Shown here piece after piece: positions 940-50,190 of a stretch of 64,000 bases of DNA. The notes beneath the pieces are model-generated. The model ran no database searches. It had not been told where the DNA came from and saw only the letters and a list, made by a program, of their open reading frames with translations. The DNA is taken from the NCBI GenBank assembly GCA_035943235.1, contig DASZCH010000129.1, forward strand, positions 13,229 through 77,228, given 5' to 3'. The first letter of the stretch is position 1. Each line of letters begins with the position of its first letter. Source of the stretch: Candidatus Acidiferrales bacterium. GTDB lineage: Bacteria; Acidobacteriota; Terriglobia; Acidiferrales; UBA7541. Made by a program: the position numbers and the translations under genes.

Positions 940-1121
940 GTTCTTGTGGACGCGTTCCGTCCGACTATGGATTATAACAAAACATGTTATGAAGTTCAAA
1001 GAGTGGTTTAAAACACTATATTTGAAGGCATGGGCTAAGCGAGAATCGCCCTTACTTTCGTCTGGACAAAATATACATTTACTTGTATACTTCCAGACAG
1101 CTTACCGCTATAGTTGCTCAT

Positions 1122-1504
1122 GTGAGCGACGAAACCGAAAAGATCAAGCTCGCGACCGTTGTTTGGGAGGGTGACTCAAGGGAAGTTCTCAAAGCCTTCC
1201 CGGAAGAGGTTACGCAAAACCTGGGGTTTGAGTTATGGCAGCTTCAACAAGGCGAGAGACCCAGAGATTATAGGCCGTTGCCTTCGGTTGGTCCGGGCGT
1301 CTTTGAACTGCGGGATCAAGATGAAAGAGCGCGTGGTATCGGGTCATTTATCTGTCGAGGATCGAAGACGTGATCTATGTTCTCCATTGCTTCGAGAAGA
1401 AAAGTCGCGAGATGCCGAGAAGGGATTTTGAGAAAGCAAAGCAGCGGATCCAAGCCGTGAAGGCGCGATTGGCAGAGGAGAAGAAACGTGAAAAACGCAG
1501 CTAA
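1122..1504 (+). pseudogene. Gp49/DUF891-type HigB-like toxin, frameshifted
   Basis: Frame 0 gives ...VVWEGDSREVLKAFPEEV...GVFELRDQDERA and then runs into junk. The family-typical C-terminus WYRVIYLSRIEDVIYVLHCFEKKSREMPRRDFEKAKQRIQAVKARL continues in the next frame from 1334 to the TAA at 1502-1504. The frame switch lies at about 1329-1336. The GTG start at 1122 is inferred. Confidence 0.75.
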
Positions 1505-1829
1505 CAAACCTACGCATGTAACGCGGGGGAACGTACTCGATGACCTCGGCTTCTCGCCGGAGCATGCGACAGCGCTGAAGTTCAAGGCAGAGCTATACCA
1601 GGCGATTCTGAAGTACTCGGAGAAGTATTCGCAGAGGGAACTGCAAGTGATCCTCGGAGAACCACAGCCGCGTATCAGCGAACTGCTCAACGGGAAGATC
1701 GCGAACAAGAGCGTTGACAAACTGCTTTACTACGCAGGACGCCTGGGCATCGAGGCAAAAGCGAAATTTTCCCAGACGCACAAAGAGGTTGTTGAAAAAG
1801 AGCTTGCGATGGCCGATCTGACGGCCTAG
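1488..1829 (+). CDS. XRE-family HTH antitoxin (HigA-like)
   Basis: Sequence NVLDDLGFSPEHATALKFKAELYQAILKY...SQRELQVILGEPQPRISELLNGK. Its GTG start overlaps the end of the upstream toxin reading frame. Confidence 0.8.
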   Translation: MKNAANKPTHVTRGNVLDDLGFSPEHATALKFKAELYQAILKYSEKYSQRELQVILGEPQPRISELLNGKIANKSVDKLLYYAGRLGIEAKAKFSQTHKEVVEKELAMADLTA

Positions 1830-2037: not shown

Positions 2038-2370
2038 TCACGCGGTAGCGACAACGCGAAGGTGTCCCTGGCGGCGCGATCGCGGCGCGCGCTTTACGGT
2101 GATTTCAATGTCGCGACCAAGTAGAGTCAGAAAGTGCATGAGCCGTTCAGTCGAGAAGCCCGAAAGCTGACCACGTAAAAGCCGGGAGATTTTTGGTTGA
2201 TCGATCCTCAGTATGTGGGCGGCCCGAGTTTGCGTGAGTCGCCGCATCCGAATGGCCTCGGAAATGCGGATCGCAAGATCGGCTTTTGCGAGACGCTGTT
2301 CGGGGTTGGGCAGGCCGATGTCGGCGAAAACGTTGCCGCTGCCTTCCTCGACCACAATTATCTTCCTCAT
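2038..2370 (-). CDS. XRE-family HTH antitoxin (HigA-like)
   Basis: Sequence NVFADIGLPNPEQRLAKADLAIRISEAI..RRLTQTRAAHILRIDQPKISRLLRGQ. It lies 6 nt downstream of the toxin gene 2377..2763. Confidence 0.8.
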   Translation of the reverse strand: MRKIIVVEEGSGNVFADIGLPNPEQRLAKADLAIRISEAIRMRRLTQTRAAHILRIDQPKISRLLRGQLSGFSTERLMHFLTLLGRDIEITVKRAPRSRRQGHLRVVATA

Positions 2371-2376
2371 TGTCTG

Positions 2377-2763
2377 TTATCCCTTCGGAGCCCCTAGCCA
2401 TCTGGCGTGCTCTTCTTCGGCTCGCTTGAGACGTGACCTGATTAGCTCAATCTCGGGCTTGGGCGTCTTGATTCCAGCCTTTGACTTCTTTTGGAACACG
2501 TGCAAGACATATATGCGACCTGCCAAGCGTACCGTATACACGGCGCGATAAGTATCCCCGGCGTGGTCTCCTATAATCTCCAAAATGCCTGCGCTGCCGA
2601 AGCCCCGCATAGGCTTGGCATCGGCGTGCTTTCCGCCGCGTTGCGCTATGTAGATTGCGTAGCCAATCGCGTCCTTCACGTCTTCTGGAAAGGAAGCGAG
2701 GTCCGCTCTAGTGCTCCCGATCCACACGACCGCCTTGACTCTGGACAATGCCGTCATTTCCAT
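2377..2763 (-). CDS. Gp49/DUF891-type HigB-like toxin (intact)
   Basis: Sequence VVWIGSTRADLASFPEDVKDAIGYAIYIAQRGGKH...YRAVYTVRLAGRIYVLHVFQKKSKAGIKTPK. Same family as the frameshifted gene at 1122..1504. Confidence 0.8.
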   Translation of the reverse strand: MEMTALSRVKAVVWIGSTRADLASFPEDVKDAIGYAIYIAQRGGKHADAKPMRGFGSAGILEIIGDHAGDTYRAVYTVRLAGRIYVLHVFQKKSKAGIKTPKPEIELIRSRLKRAEEEHARWLGAPKG

Positions 2764-3083
2764 ATTATGCCTAAACGAGCATAGGATGCAAGAACTGCTT
2801 CCTGACCGGGCGAATTTAGAGTAACCAGGGTCCTGAATTCACGTATGGAAGGTGTCGGAGCGGAGTTGTTCGGGCAGAGCACCGGAAGCCGATGCGACGC
2901 GCTCTATGGTCAGGGCCCCATAACCTTCAGCCTCTGGCCAGCAGTCGAAAGAGCCCGTTCTCTGCCCTGGCTCAATCTTTGGAGCTGGTAGGCCATTTCG
3001 TTGTTACGCCGTACTTTTGGGTACCGCATTTCAATTGGGCGTTTTGGGCAGGAAATGATGGTTGAACGTCTGCCCTCATTTGG

Positions 3084-3459: not shown

Positions 3460-6156
3460 ATGGCGATCTGGCGCAGAGTCGAATGGTTGTCCTGGTTTCC
3501 TTGGTATCGTCGCCGGACACGCCATGCTGAACTGGAACGCGAAATGCGCGATCACCTTGAATTGGAAGCTGAAGAACAGCAAGCCGCCGGTCTGTCGGCG
3601 CAAGAGGCGTCTTACGCTGCGCACCGAGCCTTGGGCAACACGCTGAAGATCCAAGAAGATGTGCGTGCGGCATGGGGCTTCCTGTGGCTCGAAACACTCG
3701 CTCAGGACGTCCGCTACGCACTGCGCATGCTGCGCAAGTCTCCGGGATTCACGGTGGTTGCCGTCCTCACTCTCGCCCTCGGCATCGGCGCAAGCACTGC
3801 CGTTTTCAGCTTAGTGGATGCTGTCCTGCTAAAGCCCTTGCCTTTTCCGCATGCCGAAAAAATCGTCTTTCCATGGCGTTTGCCGAAGCGTGGCGTGAAT
3901 CTTGGATTTGCCGTCTATCCCTGGGGCCGGCTCGATTTCTTGTTCTTCTCGCAGCAATCCAGAACCTTTGAAGCTCTGGGCGCTTTCCTGAGTGATTCGT
4001 TCAATCTGACGGACTCAGGCGAGCCGGAGCGGCTGGATGGCCTTCGCGTTTCAGCGGGGTTCTTTCCTTCTCTCGGCGTTTCGCCCGCTTTGGGACGCAC
4101 CTTCACCGATCAGGAAGATCGCCTCGGCAACGAACACGAAGTGATTCTTGGCAGTGCATTGTGGCGGCAAAGATTCGCTTCCAATCCCGAGATTTTGGGT
4201 CACGCCATTGATCTAAACGGCGTTCCCTATATCGTAATCGGCGTGATGCCACCAGGATTTGTTTTTCCCAATTCCCATGAGATGCCCAATGTCTTTACAT
4301 TCGCGCCTCAGACTCAACTGTGGGTTCCTCTCGCCCTCGACCGCCGAAGCACGGCCATTCCGTATGAGTCCGACGAGCTTGCCATCGTCGGCCGCATCAA
4401 ACCTGGCGTCACGATTGCTCAGGCGCAAGCGGACATGGACATAATGGGGAAGCGCCTGGAGAGCGGGAGACGCAATGGAGAAGGATGGTTTAACTCCGCG
4501 GTCACACCGCTCACGCGCCAAGTTGCAGGAAACACTCGCCAACCTCTTTTGCTAATTCTCGCGGCCGTGGGAGTCGTTCTGCTGATTGCGTGTTCCAACG
4601 TTGCGAGCCTTCTTCTCACTCGTTCGCTCAATCGTCAACGCGAATTCACCGTGCGCTCGGCTCTCGGTGCCGGCGCTGCACGTTTGATGCGGCAATTGAT
4701 GACCGAAAGCATCGTCTTGGCGAGCCTGGGCGGAGTAGTTGGAATTTGTTTGGCTGAAGTCATAGTCTACTTCGTGAAGGTTTTCGGTCCTTCTCGTATT
4801 CCGCGTCTTAGCGAAGCCAGTCTCGACATTCGCGTTTTGCTCTTCGCCTTTAGCGTCACTCTCTTCACCGGAGTTCTTTTCGGTTTGGCGCCGGCGCTCA
4901 GTACCACGCGTGAAAATCTTGTGGAATCGCTCAAGGAGGGTGGCCAGCGCGCCGGGTCCAATCTTTCAACTCAGAAAACTCGCAACTCATTTCTTGTTTC
5001 GCAGATTGCTCTCGCGCTCGTTTTGGTTGTCGCCGCCGGGCTTCTAACGCGCACGCTTTATCATCTGCTCGCCGTGAATCCCGGCTTTCGTGGGGAGCAC
5101 TCTCTTACGTTTGAACTTTCCTTGCCGGCCGCAAAGTATTCCGGCCAATCCCACATCGTATCTGTTTATCAAGAGACCCTCCGCAAATTGCGTGCCATTC
5201 CGGGCGTACAGGCGGCCGGAGTTACAGAATTGATTCCGCTCGATGGCGCAACCGAATCCACAGCAATTCGTTTCTCCAACGCCAGACAAGTTACTCCCTC
5301 GAGCCCAGCCTTCGCGAATTACACGATGGTTTCGCCGGGCTACTTTGCCGCTGTGGGAACGCGGATTCTGCACGGCCGCTCATTTCTCGAATCGGATTCA
5401 GCGGATTCTCTTCCTGTCGCAATCATCAGCAGCGCAATGGCTGAAAAGTATTGGCCCGGTCAAGATCCGGTGGGGAAACAAGTCGCGCCCGCGGGTGCGG
5501 CATTTCCGCTTGCCACCATTGTGGGTGTCGTCGCCGACGTCAAGCGTCTTTCGATCCGCGAGTCTCCGCCGCCGGAAATGTATGTGCCGTACACACAAAA
5601 AGTGTGGCCGTCGCTGCTCACGATGGACGTCGTGTTGCGCACGGCACAGGATCCCGGGTCCATCACCGCCAGCGCGCGCAAAGCGATTCACTCGATCGAT
5701 CCGGATTTGCCGCTTTCGAACGTGAGGACGCTTGCGGCCATCGTCTCGAACTCGATGAGTGAGCCGCTGTTCGCGGCGCTGCTCCTCGGAGCATTCGGAG
5801 TGGTAGCGCTGCTGCTCGCCACCATTGGAATGTACGGCGTTATCTCCTACAGTGTGACGCAACGTACGCAAGAAATTGGCCTGCGGATGGCGCTTGGCGC
5901 GCAGCCGCGCAACGTGCTGGAACTCGTCCTTGGCCAGGGTACTCGCCTCGCTATCGTCGGAATTACCGTCGGTCTTGCCGCCGCCTTCGCGACAACGCGT
6001 TTCATGAACGGGTTCCTGTACGGTGTCGGAGCGCTCGACCCGCTCACCTTCCTTGTCGTTTCATTGCTGCTCATGGGCACCGTCCTCCTGGCCTGCTACA
6101 TTCCCGCGCGCCGCGCGATGCGCGTGGATCCAATGGTAGCCCTCCGGTATGAATAA
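3460..6156 (+). CDS. ADOP-family duplicated FtsX/MacB-like ABC transporter permease
   Basis: 898 aa. N-terminus ELEREMRDHLELEAEE...DVRYALRMLRKSPGFTVVAVLTLALGIGA. Two FtsX-type membrane modules. C-terminus YIPARRAMRVDPMVALRYE. Starts 2 nt after the PadR gene. Confidence 0.9.
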   Translation: MAIWRRVEWLSWFPWYRRRTRHAELEREMRDHLELEAEEQQAAGLSAQEASYAAHRALGNTLKIQEDVRAAWGFLWLETLAQDVRYALRMLRKSPGFTVVAVLTLALGIGASTAVFSLVDAVLLKPLPFPHAEKIVFPWRLPKRGVNLGFAVYPWGRLDFLFFSQQSRTFEALGAFLSDSFNLTDSGEPERLDGLRVSAGFFPSLGVSPALGRTFTDQEDRLGNEHEVILGSALWRQRFASNPEILGHAIDLNGVPYIVIGVMPPGFVFPNSHEMPNVFTFAPQTQLWVPLALDRRSTAIPYESDELAIVGRIKPGVTIAQAQADMDIMGKRLESGRRNGEGWFNSAVTPLTRQVAGNTRQPLLLILAAVGVVLLIACSNVASLLLTRSLNRQREFTVRSALGAGAARLMRQLMTESIVLASLGGVVGICLAEVIVYFVKVFGPSRIPRLSEASLDIRVLLFAFSVTLFTGVLFGLAPALSTTRENLVESLKEGGQRAGSNLSTQKTRNSFLVSQIALALVLVVAAGLLTRTLYHLLAVNPGFRGEHSLTFELSLPAAKYSGQSHIVSVYQETLRKLRAIPGVQAAGVTELIPLDGATESTAIRFSNARQVTPSSPAFANYTMVSPGYFAAVGTRILHGRSFLESDSADSLPVAIISSAMAEKYWPGQDPVGKQVAPAGAAFPLATIVGVVADVKRLSIRESPPPEMYVPYTQKVWPSLLTMDVVLRTAQDPGSITASARKAIHSIDPDLPLSNVRTLAAIVSNSMSEPLFAALLLGAFGVVALLLATIGMYGVISYSVTQRTQEIGLRMALGAQPRNVLELVLGQGTRLAIVGITVGLAAAFATTRFMNGFLYGVGALDPLTFLVVSLLLMGTVLLACYIPARRAMRVDPMVALRYE

Positions 6157-24953: not shown

Positions 24954-25124
24954 TCACAGTAGCGGCTGGTAGTATTTGGTGGGGTCCGTCGGCCCTGTGC
25001 CGACCTCGCTGACCAGGCCCTTATCTACCAGCAACTTCAAATCGCGTTGGAGCGTTCTTCTGTTCACTTTCAGTTCCTCTTCGGACGTCGAGGAAGAAGC
25101 CAATGTGATCCCATTGACAAAATA
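24954..25124 (-). pseudogene. C-terminal winged-helix fragment of a larger gene (Fic/AAA-type regulator tail)
   Basis: The frame reads ...[42 protein letters not shown]. It is open for only 56 codons and has no plausible N-terminal domain or start. Confidence 0.4.
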
Positions 25125-25150
25125 TTACAAGTCTGTTATAAATTGGCATT

Positions 25151-25837
25151 ATGAAATCACAGGAACTCAAGCAGGCTCGCCAGCACAGAAGCTGGACGCA
25201 GGAGGCCGCAGCTAGCCGCATGGGGGTAACCCAGACCTATTTGAATCTGCTTGAAAATGGGAAACGGCGGTTGACACCTCGGGTGGTTCGCCGGGCCGTT
25301 TCTGTCTACGGCCTGTCGCCGGAGGTTCTTCCCCTTGAAGAGGATTTTGTGCCAGCCCGGACAACCGATGACCAATTAGTGGAGTGGTTGGCGAGACTCG
25401 AATATCCGGGTTTCGCTTACTTCAAAACGCATACCGCAAGGAAGAACCCTTATGAGGTGCTGCTTACGGCATTGGGACAGACGAGTCTCGATGGCCGCGT
25501 GGCGGAGGCCTTGCCGTGGGTAGCGATGAAGTACGCGCGGCCGGAGACATGGCTGGTTGAGACTGCCCGGAAATTCAATCTTCAAAACAAACTGGGTTTT
25601 GTCGTTAGGCTTGGGCGGCGTGTGGCCGAGAGTCATGGAGACGACACCAGATTGAAGGAACTCGGCAAGCTCGAAGAGATGCTTGAGGAGAGCCGTCTTG
25701 CGAAAGAGGGTTTTTTCTATCGTCCCCCCATGACCGAGAAAGAACGCGAGTGGCTTTCGAAGAATCGAACCGCCGACGCGGTACACTGGAACCTGCTCGC
25801 GGACATGCGGTCGGAACAGCTTTCCTATGCCCGATGA
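25151..25837 (+). CDS. XRE-family HTH protein with uncharacterised C-terminal domain (putative antitoxin/regulator)
   Basis: Sequence LKQARQHRSWTQEAAASRMGVTQTYLNLLENGKRRLT. Its C-terminal domain is shared with 244..939. Confidence 0.85.
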   Translation: MKSQELKQARQHRSWTQEAAASRMGVTQTYLNLLENGKRRLTPRVVRRAVSVYGLSPEVLPLEEDFVPARTTDDQLVEWLARLEYPGFAYFKTHTARKNPYEVLLTALGQTSLDGRVAEALPWVAMKYARPETWLVETARKFNLQNKLGFVVRLGRRVAESHGDDTRLKELGKLEEMLEESRLAKEGFFYRPPMTEKEREWLSKNRTADAVHWNLLADMRSEQLSYAR

Positions 25838-26378
25838 AACGCCCCGCGCTAAGCTCCCTTCACCGTGGAACGACTTCCTCGGAGAGATCGACAAAGCGTT
25901 AGAAAAACCGCTCGAAATCCACTGCATCGGAGGTTTTGCGCTCGTCTACTATTACGGGATTCCGCGCACAACCGGCGATATCCACTACTACACGGCTGTG
26001 CCCGCAGACCTCAATTTAGAAGAAATGACTGGCCATGATTCCGACCTGCATCGCAAGTATAAGATCTATCTTCATCGAGTTACGGTCGCAACTCTGCCTG
26101 AAGGGTACGAAGAGAGACTTTCGGAAATGGCGAGTGGACAGTTCGAACGGCTCAGGCTTCTCGTGCCCGACCCCTACGACTACATTTTGTCGAAGTTGCA
26201 GAGGGCGGGGTTGAAGGATTCCGACGACGCCTTGTATTTATTCCGAACGAGAAGGCTAAAAAGCGAAATCCTTCGAGAGCGGTATCACCGGGAATTGAGG
26301 GATTATCTGATTGGCCCGCTCGAACAGCATGACGGGACTTTGGAGCGCTGGATCGAAATTTTCGAATCAGCGGGTTGA
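25827..26378 (+). CDS. Small nucleotidyltransferase-fold protein (DUF6036-like), putative toxin partner
   Basis: Overlaps the upstream gene by 11 nt. Minimal NTase-like motif IHCIGGFALVYYYGIPRTTGDIHYY (GG..x..GD.H). Confidence 0.65.
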   Translation: MPDETPRAKLPSPWNDFLGEIDKALEKPLEIHCIGGFALVYYYGIPRTTGDIHYYTAVPADLNLEEMTGHDSDLHRKYKIYLHRVTVATLPEGYEERLSEMASGQFERLRLLVPDPYDYILSKLQRAGLKDSDDALYLFRTRRLKSEILRERYHRELRDYLIGPLEQHDGTLERWIEIFESAG

Positions 26379-26580
26379 CCCTGCTCCAAGTTCGGCGCTC
26401 TCGCATGAATCGATGCCAGGAGTCGCGTGACATAGTGCACGACGGAAGGCTACTGGCACTCAGGTAGCACCAGCAAATTATCTGTCCACACGCGATCTGC
26501 GTATGTTTGGACGAATTTGACGCCGTTTCCGTGTTCCTTGTACCTACCCTAGCTTAATTTCCTGCCGAGTCGCGAACGTA

Positions 26581-48377: not shown

Positions 48378-49295
48378 TTAGCACCAGGGCCCGCACGGTT
48401 CCCAGCGTTTAGCGAACGGACTGCCGTCGAGCAAAGCCGTTGCGACGGGCGTCAAGAAACGCTTTACGTTTTCGACTACTTCCTTGAGTTCGGTCTTCGT
48501 AACGTATGTCGCGTTTCTGGTACAGAATGCGGTCCACTGCTTCTTCTTATCCGTGTCGTTATAGAACTCGGGTGTGAAAGCGACTGGGGTGCCGGCGGCC
48601 GGTAGCTCAGTTCCGCGTCGCTCGAATGTTTTGCGGATCGCTTCGCCAAGCATTTTGCCGTCGAAATCGAGACTCCGCGAAAGAGCTTCAAGATCATAGA
48701 AGTCTTTCATTCGGCTGTTGGCGATCCCGAGCTTAACTATGGCCTCGAATTTTTCCGCGACAACCGTTTCCTTGGGATAGGTGAGAAGGCGAGGATTGGA
48801 TGCCGCTAGTAGCGTGGGATATTCAGTTTCGATGGGTGGGGGAGTTACGACATCTCCGAATCCGATATCGGTCTGAATCGGAATACGCGCGCGCTCAAGG
48901 TACGCCGTGAATGTCACGCGCACGCCTCCCTAGTCGGCGTCCTCGGTGATGCGCTCGGCTTTGACCGACCCAGCGTCGAAGGTTAAGCCATCAGGTTCAA
49001 CTTCAGTGGCGCAAAGTTCCTTGAAGATCGCCACGAAACGTTCGGGGGAATTGTCGCCCCGTGCGAGGAAATCCGCGTCTCTCGTGGCGCGGTAGGTATG
49101 TTTTGTCCAGAGTTCGAAGAGCAACGCGCCTTTTAGGACGAACGTATTGCGGTGCTTTGAGCGGCTGAGGCGATACAGAATTCTCTCAAGACCGTACTTC
49201 ACGAGAATCAACCCGAAGTCTTCGTTCCGTGAACGAGCCAAGTCGAGCAATTTCTGGCGTACCGAGGCCGCGAGGTTCTTGGGTTCATGCGGCAC
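48378..49295 (-). pseudogene. abiEii: AbiEii/DUF1814 nucleotidyltransferase toxin interrupted by an in-frame TAG
   Basis: The N-terminal part (49295..48933) ends ...KAERITEDAD-TAG(48930-48932). The same frame continues GGVRVTFTAYLERARIPIQTDIGFGDVVTP..., so the two track ORFs (48930..49295 and 48378..48923) are one gene. Confidence 0.8.
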
Positions 49296-49894
49296 TAGAG
49301 CGACTCCAGGTAGGGGCGGATCACTTTCGCAACGCGGCAGACTTTCGCTGCGGCCCAGAGTTGGTCAATGGAAGCCTTCTTGAGCCGTCGAGATTCTTTC
49401 AGAGCCTCGATGGCGACATCGAGTCCGATCTTGTAGCGGAACTTAAAGCAATCAGCGACAGTCTTGGCAGGCGTAAAAACGCGGATGACTCGGCCAGACA
49501 CATGATGTTCAGACGCTCCGAACTGAAGCGCTGGGCCGGACATGCGAACGAATCGAACTGGCGGAGACGAAATTGTGGGAGCCCAGGCTTTGTGGCCGAT
49601 GGCCATCCACACTTCGCGCGGAGATTGGGTAGTGAGGTTGTGAAATCGGAGTGCGGAGAGCAGGCAAATAATGCCTTGGGTGACCTGATACGATGCTTCG
49701 ACAAGCGATGCGTGTTCACTGGGAGAAAATCCCGGTGACGTGTATAGGCCACGTGCAATTTTTTCGAGTTGCCCCTGGCGAGCCAGCCGGGACAGATAGG
49801 TCCGCGGGACGCCGAGCTGAGCTGCATCGGCGGCAGTAATGATCTGGCGTTTGGTGGCCAGATTGCGAAGTTTGTCGGCTTTGGATTTGGGCAT
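49295..49894 (-). CDS. abiEi: AbiEi-type (type IV TA) antitoxin/transcriptional regulator
   Basis: Sequence ITAADAAQLGVPRTYLSRLARQGQLEKIARGLY..., followed by the C-terminal AbiEi domain. Its stop abuts the toxin start. Confidence 0.8.
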   Translation of the reverse strand: MPKSKADKLRNLATKRQIITAADAAQLGVPRTYLSRLARQGQLEKIARGLYTSPGFSPSEHASLVEASYQVTQGIICLLSALRFHNLTTQSPREVWMAIGHKAWAPTISSPPVRFVRMSGPALQFGASEHHVSGRVIRVFTPAKTVADCFKFRYKIGLDVAIEALKESRRLKKASIDQLWAAAKVCRVAKVIRPYLESL

Positions 49895-50065
49895 GCGGAC
49901 GCCTCGACACTACTGTACCAAGTCCTCGGCAGATGTAAACAAGTGCCTAGCAATTGTAGCATACTCATGCCTAGGCATTGTGACATGCCCTCACTGGCAT
50001 CCTGGTCCACAATGGTGACGTTGTGTCGTGTGTCAGAATTGTGTCAAAACCCTATGTGTTTTGGT

Positions 50066-50190
50066 CATTGGGGTTAGCTTTCGAGCGAAAAGCAGATGCC
50101 CCAAGTTATTGTAAAGAAACGATAAAGTGAAGGAAGCAACGGAAAGTTTAGAGAGGTCTCGGCGGCCGCTGAGCAGGTGCTCTACAAGCC
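50066..50190 (+). repeat. Imperfect direct repeat flanking the AbiE cassette (copy B)
   Basis: See 48200..48350. Confidence 0.6.

Follow-up and report, generated by a model that had tools for sequence, protein, structure and literature searches.

The window analyzed here is a stretch of 64,000 nucleotides from a Candidatus Acidiferrales bacterium (contig DASZCH010000129.1, positions 13,229 to 77,228), and on its forward strand it carries a pair of overlapping genes, termed A and B, that we examined as a candidate toxin–antitoxin (TA) cassette. Gene A encodes a regulator with a helix-turn-helix (HTH) of the XRE family and gene B a small nucleotidyltransferase (NTase). The features of the locus, in window coordinates, are as follows.

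25151–25837, + strand: gene A, 228 aa, with an XRE-type HTH at residues 4–60 followed by a ~160-residue all-α C-terminal domain; putative autorepressor and antitoxin.
25827–26378, + strand: gene B, 183 aa, a DUF6036 NTase and compact AbiEii/MenT-like putative toxin; the window copy has the substitution D53H.
25827–25837, + strand: A/B overlap of 11 nt, ATGCCCGATGA, spanning the stop codon of A and the start codon of B (translational coupling).
25097–26416, + strand: mobile two-gene cassette (promoter, A and B), defined by the extent of DNA homology to locus L004 (93%).
25114–25142, + strand: promoter-like element of A, with TTGACA at 25114–25119, a 17-nt spacer and TATAAA at 25137–25142; the start codon lies 8 nt past the −10.
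25123–25140, + strand: TATTACA-agtc-TGTTATA, an inverted repeat that overlaps the −10 and is the candidate operator through which A would repress its own operon.
25983–25985, + strand: His53 codon CAC, where the DhD motif of the family has its second catalytic Asp; D53H results from one G-to-C change at 25983.

The two coding regions and their 11-nt overlap are placed exactly as an earlier annotation made from the DNA alone, referred to below as the sequence-only reading, had given them. Ratios of nonsynonymous to synonymous substitution rates (dN/dS) of 0.12–0.24 for A and B against close relatives indicate purifying selection, and both are therefore genuine, constrained genes.

The product of gene B, whose sequence includes IGGFALVYYYGIPRTTGDIHYY, matches the Pfam family DUF6036 (PF19502, ‘nucleotidyltransferase of unknown function’) over residues 30–155 with 42.0 bits against a cut-off of 23.6 (E-value 1.1e-10). 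All 44 of the B relatives tested pass the same threshold, and no NCBIfam, PADLOC or PDB-sequence match to B was found. Its AlphaFold2 (AF2) model (pLDDT 89.6) consists of an α/β core (residues 14–113), in which a helix, a strand, a GG turn and a mixed sheet build the NTase core fold, and of four C-terminal helices (residues 116–180). The top Foldseek neighbors of the model are all NTase-fold proteins, at weak E-values. The sequence-only reading had described this open reading frame (ORF) as a ‘minimal NTase’; the NTase assignment is upheld by the DUF6036 match and the α/β core, whereas ‘minimal’ does not fit this two-lobed protein, whose motifs resemble those of the short MenT1-type AbiEii/DUF1814 toxins.

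Across 151 relatives of B, the near-invariant residues are G35, G36, R47, T49, D51, D53, D118, K123, R126, K/R130, D131 and D134, arranged in the motifs GG-x14-D, R47-x-T49-x-D51-h-D53, K123-L-x-R126 and K/R130-D131-x-x-D134. R47, four residues N-terminal to D51, is kept in 149 of these relatives, and T49, two residues before the first catalytic Asp, in 150. Within S-K123-L-x-R126, the Lys is present in 146 and the Arg in 149, and in motif IV K/R130 is found in 130 and D131 and D134 in 147 each, with two variable residues between the Asp positions. The AbiEii/DUF1814 toxins are characterized by an hG[G/S]-x15-DhD motif with longer than canonical spacing, by an Arg in motif II (R63...D67-h-D69) that other pol-β enzymes lack, and by a motif III Lys with hydrophobic neighbors (KLxAaxxR-like) together with a family-specific +DxxD motif IV (Dy et al, 2014; PMC3985639). 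The phospho-acceptors used for shut-off by antitoxins, each located two positions ahead of the first catalytic Asp, are T39 in MenT1, S78 in MenT3 and T65 in AbiEii (PMC11375011; bioRxiv 10.64898/2026.01.19.700257). The B family carries the full set, namely the spacing, the motif II Arg, a Thr at the acceptor position, the motif III Lys and +DxxD. On the strength of these motifs, we read DUF6036 as a compact family related to the AbiEii/MenT toxins.

In gene A, residues 4–60 match Pfam HTH_31 (2e-14) and HTH_3 (3.6e-13), which places the domain in the XRE (Cro/C1) family, and the fold search superposes it on SinR, C.AhdI, HipB and the 434 repressor over ~55–60 residues with a root-mean-square deviation of 1–2 Å. 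The remainder, which the sequence-only reading had described as a domain with no recognizable motif, is indeed uncovered: Pfam, NCBIfam and PADLOC recognize the HTH only and give no match over residues ~65–228. The AF2 model of A (pLDDT 87) shows a five-helix XRE domain followed by eight helices within residues 73–217 and zero strands. Fold searches of PDB and BFVD with the full-length model returned HTH matches alone (TMq about 0.25), the profile of the C-domain gave only chance-level matches against PDB sequences, and no Pfam match fell on the C-domain in any of 89 diverse members. An exhaustive hidden Markov model (HMM) search with the C-domain collected 745 clusters at 50% identity, mostly of ~225–235 aa and composed of HTH plus C-domain. 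Positions conserved in this wide family are Y85, P100, R116, L121-P122-W123, Q145-N146, L148-G149, R206 and W213; R116, Q145, N146 and R206 are the only invariant or near-invariant polar residues, and H212 is variable. The C-terminal domain of A is an undescribed, all-helical domain.

Two candidate identities for this domain were examined and rejected. The comparison with the AbiEi C-domain, to which the AbiE analogy of the sequence-only reading had pointed, came out negative, as the domain is all-helical, unlike that of AbiEi; an AbiEi-like C-domain is ruled out by the all-α structure, the fold search and the absence of AbiEi Pfam matches. AbiEi itself (6y8q) appears among the fold neighbors of B and not of A, and at the N-terminus only XRE-type HTH models match A, with no match to the AbiEi winged-HTH models (AbiEi_4/AbiEi_3_N). 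A HEPN-like toxin was also considered, the window protein containing RRVAESH and R206-x5-H212; both are unconserved in A', the paralogue of A in the window, and in the wider family.

Relatives of A and B number in the hundreds each in metagenomes and metagenome-assembled genomes (MAGs), mostly from ‘Candidatus Acidoferrales/Acidiferrales’ and other Acidobacteriota, and public annotation calls them only ‘XRE-family regulator’ and ‘DUF6036’ (‘DUF6036 family nucleotidyltransferase’). We compiled 80 genome loci at species level, with the C-domain of A as the seed, and 80 metagenome loci seeded on B. The A-seeded loci belong to Acidobacteriota of several classes, to Rokubacteria/Methylomirabilota and to a few MAGs with other labels, possibly mis-binned. 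An intact B lies directly downstream on the same strand in 63 of them, and five more had been overlooked by the start-codon script. Among the 63, the A/B overlap measures 11 nt in 37 and 14 nt in 11, with 8, 17, 20 or 23 nt in most others. The B-seeded loci have a full A upstream in 68 cases, a contig edge in nine and a damaged A in three; none of the 71 with room for A lacks an A gene altogether. Synteny in other genomes, set in advance as a test of the pair, is thus borne out by about 68 of the 80 A-seeded loci and by an upstream A gene in 71 of 71 informative B-seeded loci.

DNA homology between the window and 18 relatives starts at about 25097–25114, and the flanks vary between genomes. 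As the homologous block contains the promoter, A and B alone and the flanks differ, the pair represents a discrete, mobile cassette of 1.3 kb. Its neighbors in the window are ordinary chromosomal genes (PhoU, TetR, rhodanese, membrane proteins and a Ser/Thr kinase). In its overlapping co-directional genes, DNA-binding partner encoded first, palindrome and patchy mobile distribution, the cassette has the generic architecture of a type II-style TA operon.

Several observations accompany this distribution. Two intact cassettes lie ~80 kb apart on contig CAVUDA010000034.1 (L012 and L013, at 207–216 kb and 289–298 kb), so multi-copy carriage, as in the window, is not unusual. Four loci come from MAGs labeled Saccharimonadales, Patescibacteria, Clostridia or Glassbacteria (L009, L044, L055 and L063) and may be binning artifacts or reflect true horizontal transfer, whereas several of the Rokubacteria/Methylomirabilota loci seem to be authentic. 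In one 283-aa protein (P0295), an A-type C-domain runs into a B-type NTase N-terminus (...PWDAFLKDLD...CIGGFVVTQFYG...), as a natural fusion or as a frameshifted call across the overlap. Directly against the upstream border of the cassette lies a 49-aa ORF (24954–25103, − strand) that looks like a C-terminal piece of a winged-HTH regulator, with weak matches to HTH_11/TrmB; it may be the remnant of a gene broken when the cassette arrived. Elsewhere in the window, ~160 nt at 50029–50189, which is 135–295 nt upstream of an AbiEi gene, are 89% identical to positions 3526–3686 of L004, just upstream of the L004 cassette. A similar upstream flank is visibly common to several other close relatives. 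The repeat may mark a hot-spot of recombination or insertion, or be a small mobile element. Scans of the whole window gave neither a tRNA nor an Rfam match.

The strict consensus promoter scan did not call the promoter of A, because its −10 ends in A at position 6, and the assignment therefore rests on conservation across genomes: in 46 of the 55 relatives matching the promoter pattern, the −10 ends 9–10 nt before the start codon. This spacing suggests that the A–B transcript is leaderless or near-leaderless. We surveyed the inverted repeat in 108 non-redundant upstream regions, within 45 nt of the start codon, using distal regions and shuffled sequences as controls. A perfect 7/7 repeat occurs in 52 upstream regions, compared with two distal controls and no shuffles, and a 6/7 repeat in 42, compared with nine distal controls and 26 shuffles. 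The arms vary in a compensatory manner (TATAACA/TGTTATA, TATTACA/TGTAATA, TATCACA/TGTGATA and TATAGCA/TGCTATA). Together, the enrichment and the compensatory arms have the look of an operator co-evolving with a dimeric repressor and point to autorepression by A.

The two genes are lost unequally. In about 12 of the 80 A-seeded genomes, A is intact and B is deleted or broken. B is cut off after a few codons in L002, the nearest relative of A, where homology stops at 25843; its catalytic core has a clean internal deletion in L030 and L055; it is truncated in L021; it is interrupted by frameshifts or stops in L008, L035 and L074, with the caveat of indel errors in some long-read MAGs; and it is entirely absent next to A in L009, L023, L054 and L067. 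One B-seeded locus, L104, has both genes wrecked. The putative role of regulator and antitoxin falls to A because the DNA-binding gene comes first, because of the operator and because of this asymmetric loss of B. The asymmetry also argues against a reversed, HEPN–MNT-like polarity, as an antitoxin left on its own does no harm, whereas a toxin left on its own does.

The window copy of B deviates from its family at the active site. The His that the sequence-only reading had noticed at the second acidic NTase position is real and abnormal: position 53 is Asp in 149 of the 151 relatives and Glu in one, with one gapped, and His occurs only in the window copy. Twelve close relatives have GAC at this codon, the Asp is kept in all 76 B-seeded metagenome loci in which the motif was found (78 scanned), and the 12 further members examined from the 90% cluster of the window copy all have DID. 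The family thus has the two carboxylates of the metal-binding motif of pol-β NTases, hG[G/S]-x(9-13+)-D-h-D, whereas the window copy (D51-I-H53) does not. In AbiEii, D69A and D69E at the equivalent position abolish toxicity (PMC3985639). D53H is therefore likely inactivating, which would leave B of this first copy non-toxic.

A second copy of the cassette lies near the start of the window, on the opposite strand.

244–939, − strand: gene A', 231 aa, now an orphan; full-length identity to its paralogue A 40% (E-value 4e-59); HTH_3 8e-13.
224–257, − strand: B' remnant, codons 1–11 (MPHPDSVPEPW), overlapping A' by 14 nt; deletion breakpoint at 223/224.
971–999, − strand: promoter-like element of A', with TTGAAC at 994–999 and TATAAT at 971–976, and the repeat CATAACA (985–991)/TGTTATA (973–979); operator type as in the family.

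The paralogy of A' with A, proposed from the sequence, is supported by this full-length identity. The overlap had been thought to have the same geometry as that of A and B; it is instead 14 nt, not 11, a length that ranks second in the family, with 11 of 63 loci. The partner ORF at 66–257 (− strand) does keep only its start, the 11 residues listed above, and its match to the B profile alone is not significant. The gradual decay that had been assumed is replaced by a clean breakpoint. The closest relative of A' (L082, 79% nucleotide identity) has an intact NTase starting with the identical 11 residues, and DNA homology to L036, L044, L082, L021 and L071 stops exactly at position 224, so B' was lost from about codon 11 onward through a deletion or rearrangement. 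No NTase similarity follows A' in any frame of 1–300, with no frameshifted remnant, and the rest of B' was not found elsewhere in the window. Both cassette copies are therefore predicted to be degenerate in this genome, through D53H in copy 1 and deletion of the NTase in copy 2, with loss of the presumed toxin activity.

Next to A', a pair at 1083–1829 (+ strand) comprises a Gp49/DUF891 (HigB/RelE-like) ORF at 1083–1373, barely over the Pfam threshold, and an HTH_37/XRE protein at 1488–1829, which suggests a cluster of TA modules at that end of the window. Toxin decay in other TA modules of the window, also put forward by the sequence-only reading, is seen in a canonical AbiE module.

49295–49894, − strand: AbiEi, intact; Pfam AbiEi_4 2.3e-14.
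48930–49295 and 48378–48923, − strand: AbiEii, split by an in-frame stop; in relatives (87–89% identical) it is one 305-aa PF08843 protein.

The module thus combines an intact antitoxin gene with a pseudogene of the toxin, and its family is clearly different from that of the A–B cassette.

Compared with characterized systems, the cassette combines familiar and unfamiliar parts. The AbiE system of Streptococcus agalactiae (AbiEi–AbiEii) and MenAT3/4 (COG5340–DUF1814) are bicistronic, with a two-domain protein encoded upstream and an NTase downstream, as in A–B. The layout of AbiEi, whose N-terminal DNA-binding domain autorepresses by way of inverted repeats at the promoter while its C-terminal domain confers antitoxicity, can be likened to that of A, and AbiEii and B have in common R-x-T-x-D-h-D, the motif III Lys and the +DxxD of motif IV. 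However, AbiEi joins a winged HTH (AbiEi_4/COG5340) to an α/β C-domain, whereas A joins an XRE HTH to an all-α C-domain without a detectable relative, and AbiEii has about 300 aa compared with the 183 of B. MenAT1 of Mycobacterium tuberculosis (MenA1–MenT1, Rv0078B/Rv0078A; PDB 8an4/8an5) resembles the cassette in that the toxin gene is downstream of the antitoxin gene. MenT1 has ~190 aa in two lobes, a β-sheet core and a four-helix bundle (PMC10435456), and the B model is of the same build. The motif PR-x-T-x-D-h-D aligns with T39/D41 of MenT1, and K137 of MenT1 corresponds to K123 of B and D152 to D131/D134, yet the likeness is weak (E-value 0.86, TM-score 0.45), and B falls in Pfam DUF6036, not AbiEii/DUF1814. 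MenA1, at 7.4 kDa, has neither a DNA-binding domain nor autoregulation (PMC11375011), in contrast to A, a putative 228-aa XRE repressor with a conserved operator candidate. HEPN–MNT systems share with A–B the two-gene module with a pol-β-fold NTase, but encode a minimal NTase antitoxin first, and its partner carries an Rx4-6H RNase motif.

We consider it reasonably probable that the pair is a TA cassette, with A both repressing its own operon and neutralizing a MenT/AbiEii-like, tRNA-targeting NTase. A would act as a dimeric XRE-family repressor on the 18-bp palindrome TATnACA-N4-6-TGTnATA overlapping its own −10, shutting the operon off, and its all-helical C-domain would neutralize B. By analogy with the known toxins, B, translationally coupled via the 11-nt overlap, would extend the 3' ends of tRNAs with added nucleotides, blocking translation. 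More speculatively, A may bind B and induce it to auto-phosphorylate at T49, in the manner of type VII systems, a guess prompted by the Thr that B keeps at the acceptor position of AbiEii T65 and MenT1 T39. In this genome, A and A' would remain as orphan regulators or antitoxins.

Several results weigh against this interpretation, among them the weakness of the global comparisons of B. Foldseek aligned B with JHP933 at an E-value of 0.018 and with MenT1 at 0.15 (TM-score 0.45 in each case), both weak, as are its other top PDB matches, the AbiEi C-domain and ANT(2''). The broad B profile retrieved a single PDB chain, MenT1 (8an4), at an E-value of 0.86, in an alignment that places T49 on T39 and D51 on D41, and the narrow B profile matched nothing among the PDB sequences. 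DUF6036 and AbiEii had both been named by the sequence-only reading as profiles for the 183-aa protein; the former matched, whereas Pfam AbiEii (PF08843) left the window B unmatched at E ≤ 1. Sub-threshold AbiEii matches appear in 10 of the 44 B relatives, the best at 7.6e-5 (13.7 bits; cut-off 22.5), and cover motif I/II only. That MenT1 is the one chain reached by the profile, that JHP933, the AbiEi C-domain and MenT1 head the Foldseek matches and that these sub-threshold matches exist nevertheless speaks for the TA interpretation. Comparing profiles with hhalign gave E-values of 0.11 against a 34-sequence AbiEii profile and 0.26 against the single AbiEii of the window; both runs pair motifs III/IV correctly, though neither is significant. 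We do not file B as an AbiEii/MenT member, given that significance was reached neither with the family HMM nor in the global comparisons. In addition, two of the 71 loci (L119, with A at ~637–1281, and L137, with A at ~2214–3008) have an A broken by stops or frameshifts beside a seemingly intact B with DID, which is unexpected for a potent toxin unless assembly errors are involved or B is otherwise silenced. No B relatives were found on viral contigs, neither protein matches a PADLOC defense model beyond the HTH, the promoter of A is recognized by its likeness to the consensus, in a phylum with poorly characterized promoters, and our literature search found no paper on DUF6036 or PF19502.

The main rival to the TA interpretation casts A as a ligand-sensing XRE repressor whose C-domain binds an inducer, and B as an accessory NTase without toxicity that modifies a small molecule, such as an antibiotic in the way of ANT(2'')/Lnu-type enzymes, or acts on another target in the cell. 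XRE repressors with ligand-binding C-terminal domains are common, and the Foldseek neighbors of B include ANT(2'') (4xje, E-value 0.38), LinB (3jyy, E-value 0.87) and ANT(6), which are two-lobed and of similar size, although the ANT/Lnu matches are weaker than those to JHP933 and MenT1. The frequent loss of B and the mobility of the cassette would also suit an accessory resistance gene, and so would the two loci that tolerate an intact B beside a broken A; against this, an active-site substitution combined with repeated precise deletions of B, with A kept, is the usual course of TA decay, and B without an A gene occurs in 0 of 71 informative loci. The out-of-frame overlap of 8–23 nt implies stoichiometric co-translation, typical of TA pairs, and B has features of DUF1814 toxins absent from other pol-β NTases, namely the motif II Arg, +DxxD and the Thr at the acceptor position (Dy et al, 2014). 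On balance, we regard an accessory enzyme as unlikely.

Far less probable is a reversal of roles as in HEPN–MNT, in which the C-domain of A would be the toxin and B an MNT-like antitoxin acting by nucleotidylation. MNT-type NTases are antitoxins of HEPN toxins, and the C-domain is an undescribed all-helical bundle; it has, however, no conserved Rx4-6H, and the gene order is opposite to that of HEPN–MNT. At 183 aa and with two lobes, B is larger than minimal MNTs, the HTH and the operator mark A as the regulator and antitoxin partner, and the persistence of an intact A without a working B, in about 12 genomes and in the second copy of the window, would be lethal if A were the toxin. A further alternative keeps the same pair and assigns it to abortive-infection phage defense, with the C-domain of A sensing infection and releasing B, rather than to selfish addiction or stabilization. 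AbiE, the founding member of the toxin family, gives both phage resistance and plasmid stabilization (PMC3985639), the cassette is mobile, patchy and often multi-copy, and the window also holds the canonical AbiE module. Yet PADLOC matches the HTH only, no relatives were found on viral contigs, the adjoining genes are of housekeeping type and do not form a defense island, and with both copies inactivated no defense would be possible in this genome; a defensive role is, in our estimate, quite unlikely.

Documented here are the pairing of DUF6036 with a protein composed of an XRE HTH and a novel domain, the putative operator, and a decay pattern like that of a toxin. The MenT/AbiE literature describes MazE-like, COG4861 and COG5340 antitoxins, with no XRE partner carrying an A-type domain among them, and our search found no paper on XRE plus NTase in Acidobacteria, nor on NetFlax plus nucleotidyltransferase. 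What would be new is thus an undescribed antitoxin-type domain together with a small toxin scaffold; the toxin chemistry and the operon logic would be known, and the system would not be conceptually surprising. A bolder reading, which we put forward only tentatively and think rather doubtful, is that the C-domain of A constitutes a new antitoxin family that independently evolved the shut-off of MenT/AbiEii toxins, most specifically by Thr49 auto-phosphorylation, and that DUF6036 is an unrecognized branch of minimal tRNA-targeting toxins, abundant in soil Acidobacteriota and Rokubacteria.

For this genome the finding is ordinary, as both copies look like decayed selfish modules, or relics. For the family, if the TA interpretation is true, DUF6036 would gain a function as a compact AbiEii/MenT-type toxin, with the unmodeled domain as its antitoxin. 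It would also extend into abundant, mostly uncultured soil phyla, remote from the pathogens in which the mechanism was established, the recent proposal that diverse, unrelated partners silence such NTases at the same active-site Thr/Ser. The family supplies natural controls of its own, in the precise toxin deletions of many lineages and in the D53H allele found here, and its compensatory operator variants may offer a neat system for studying the co-evolution of repressor and operator.

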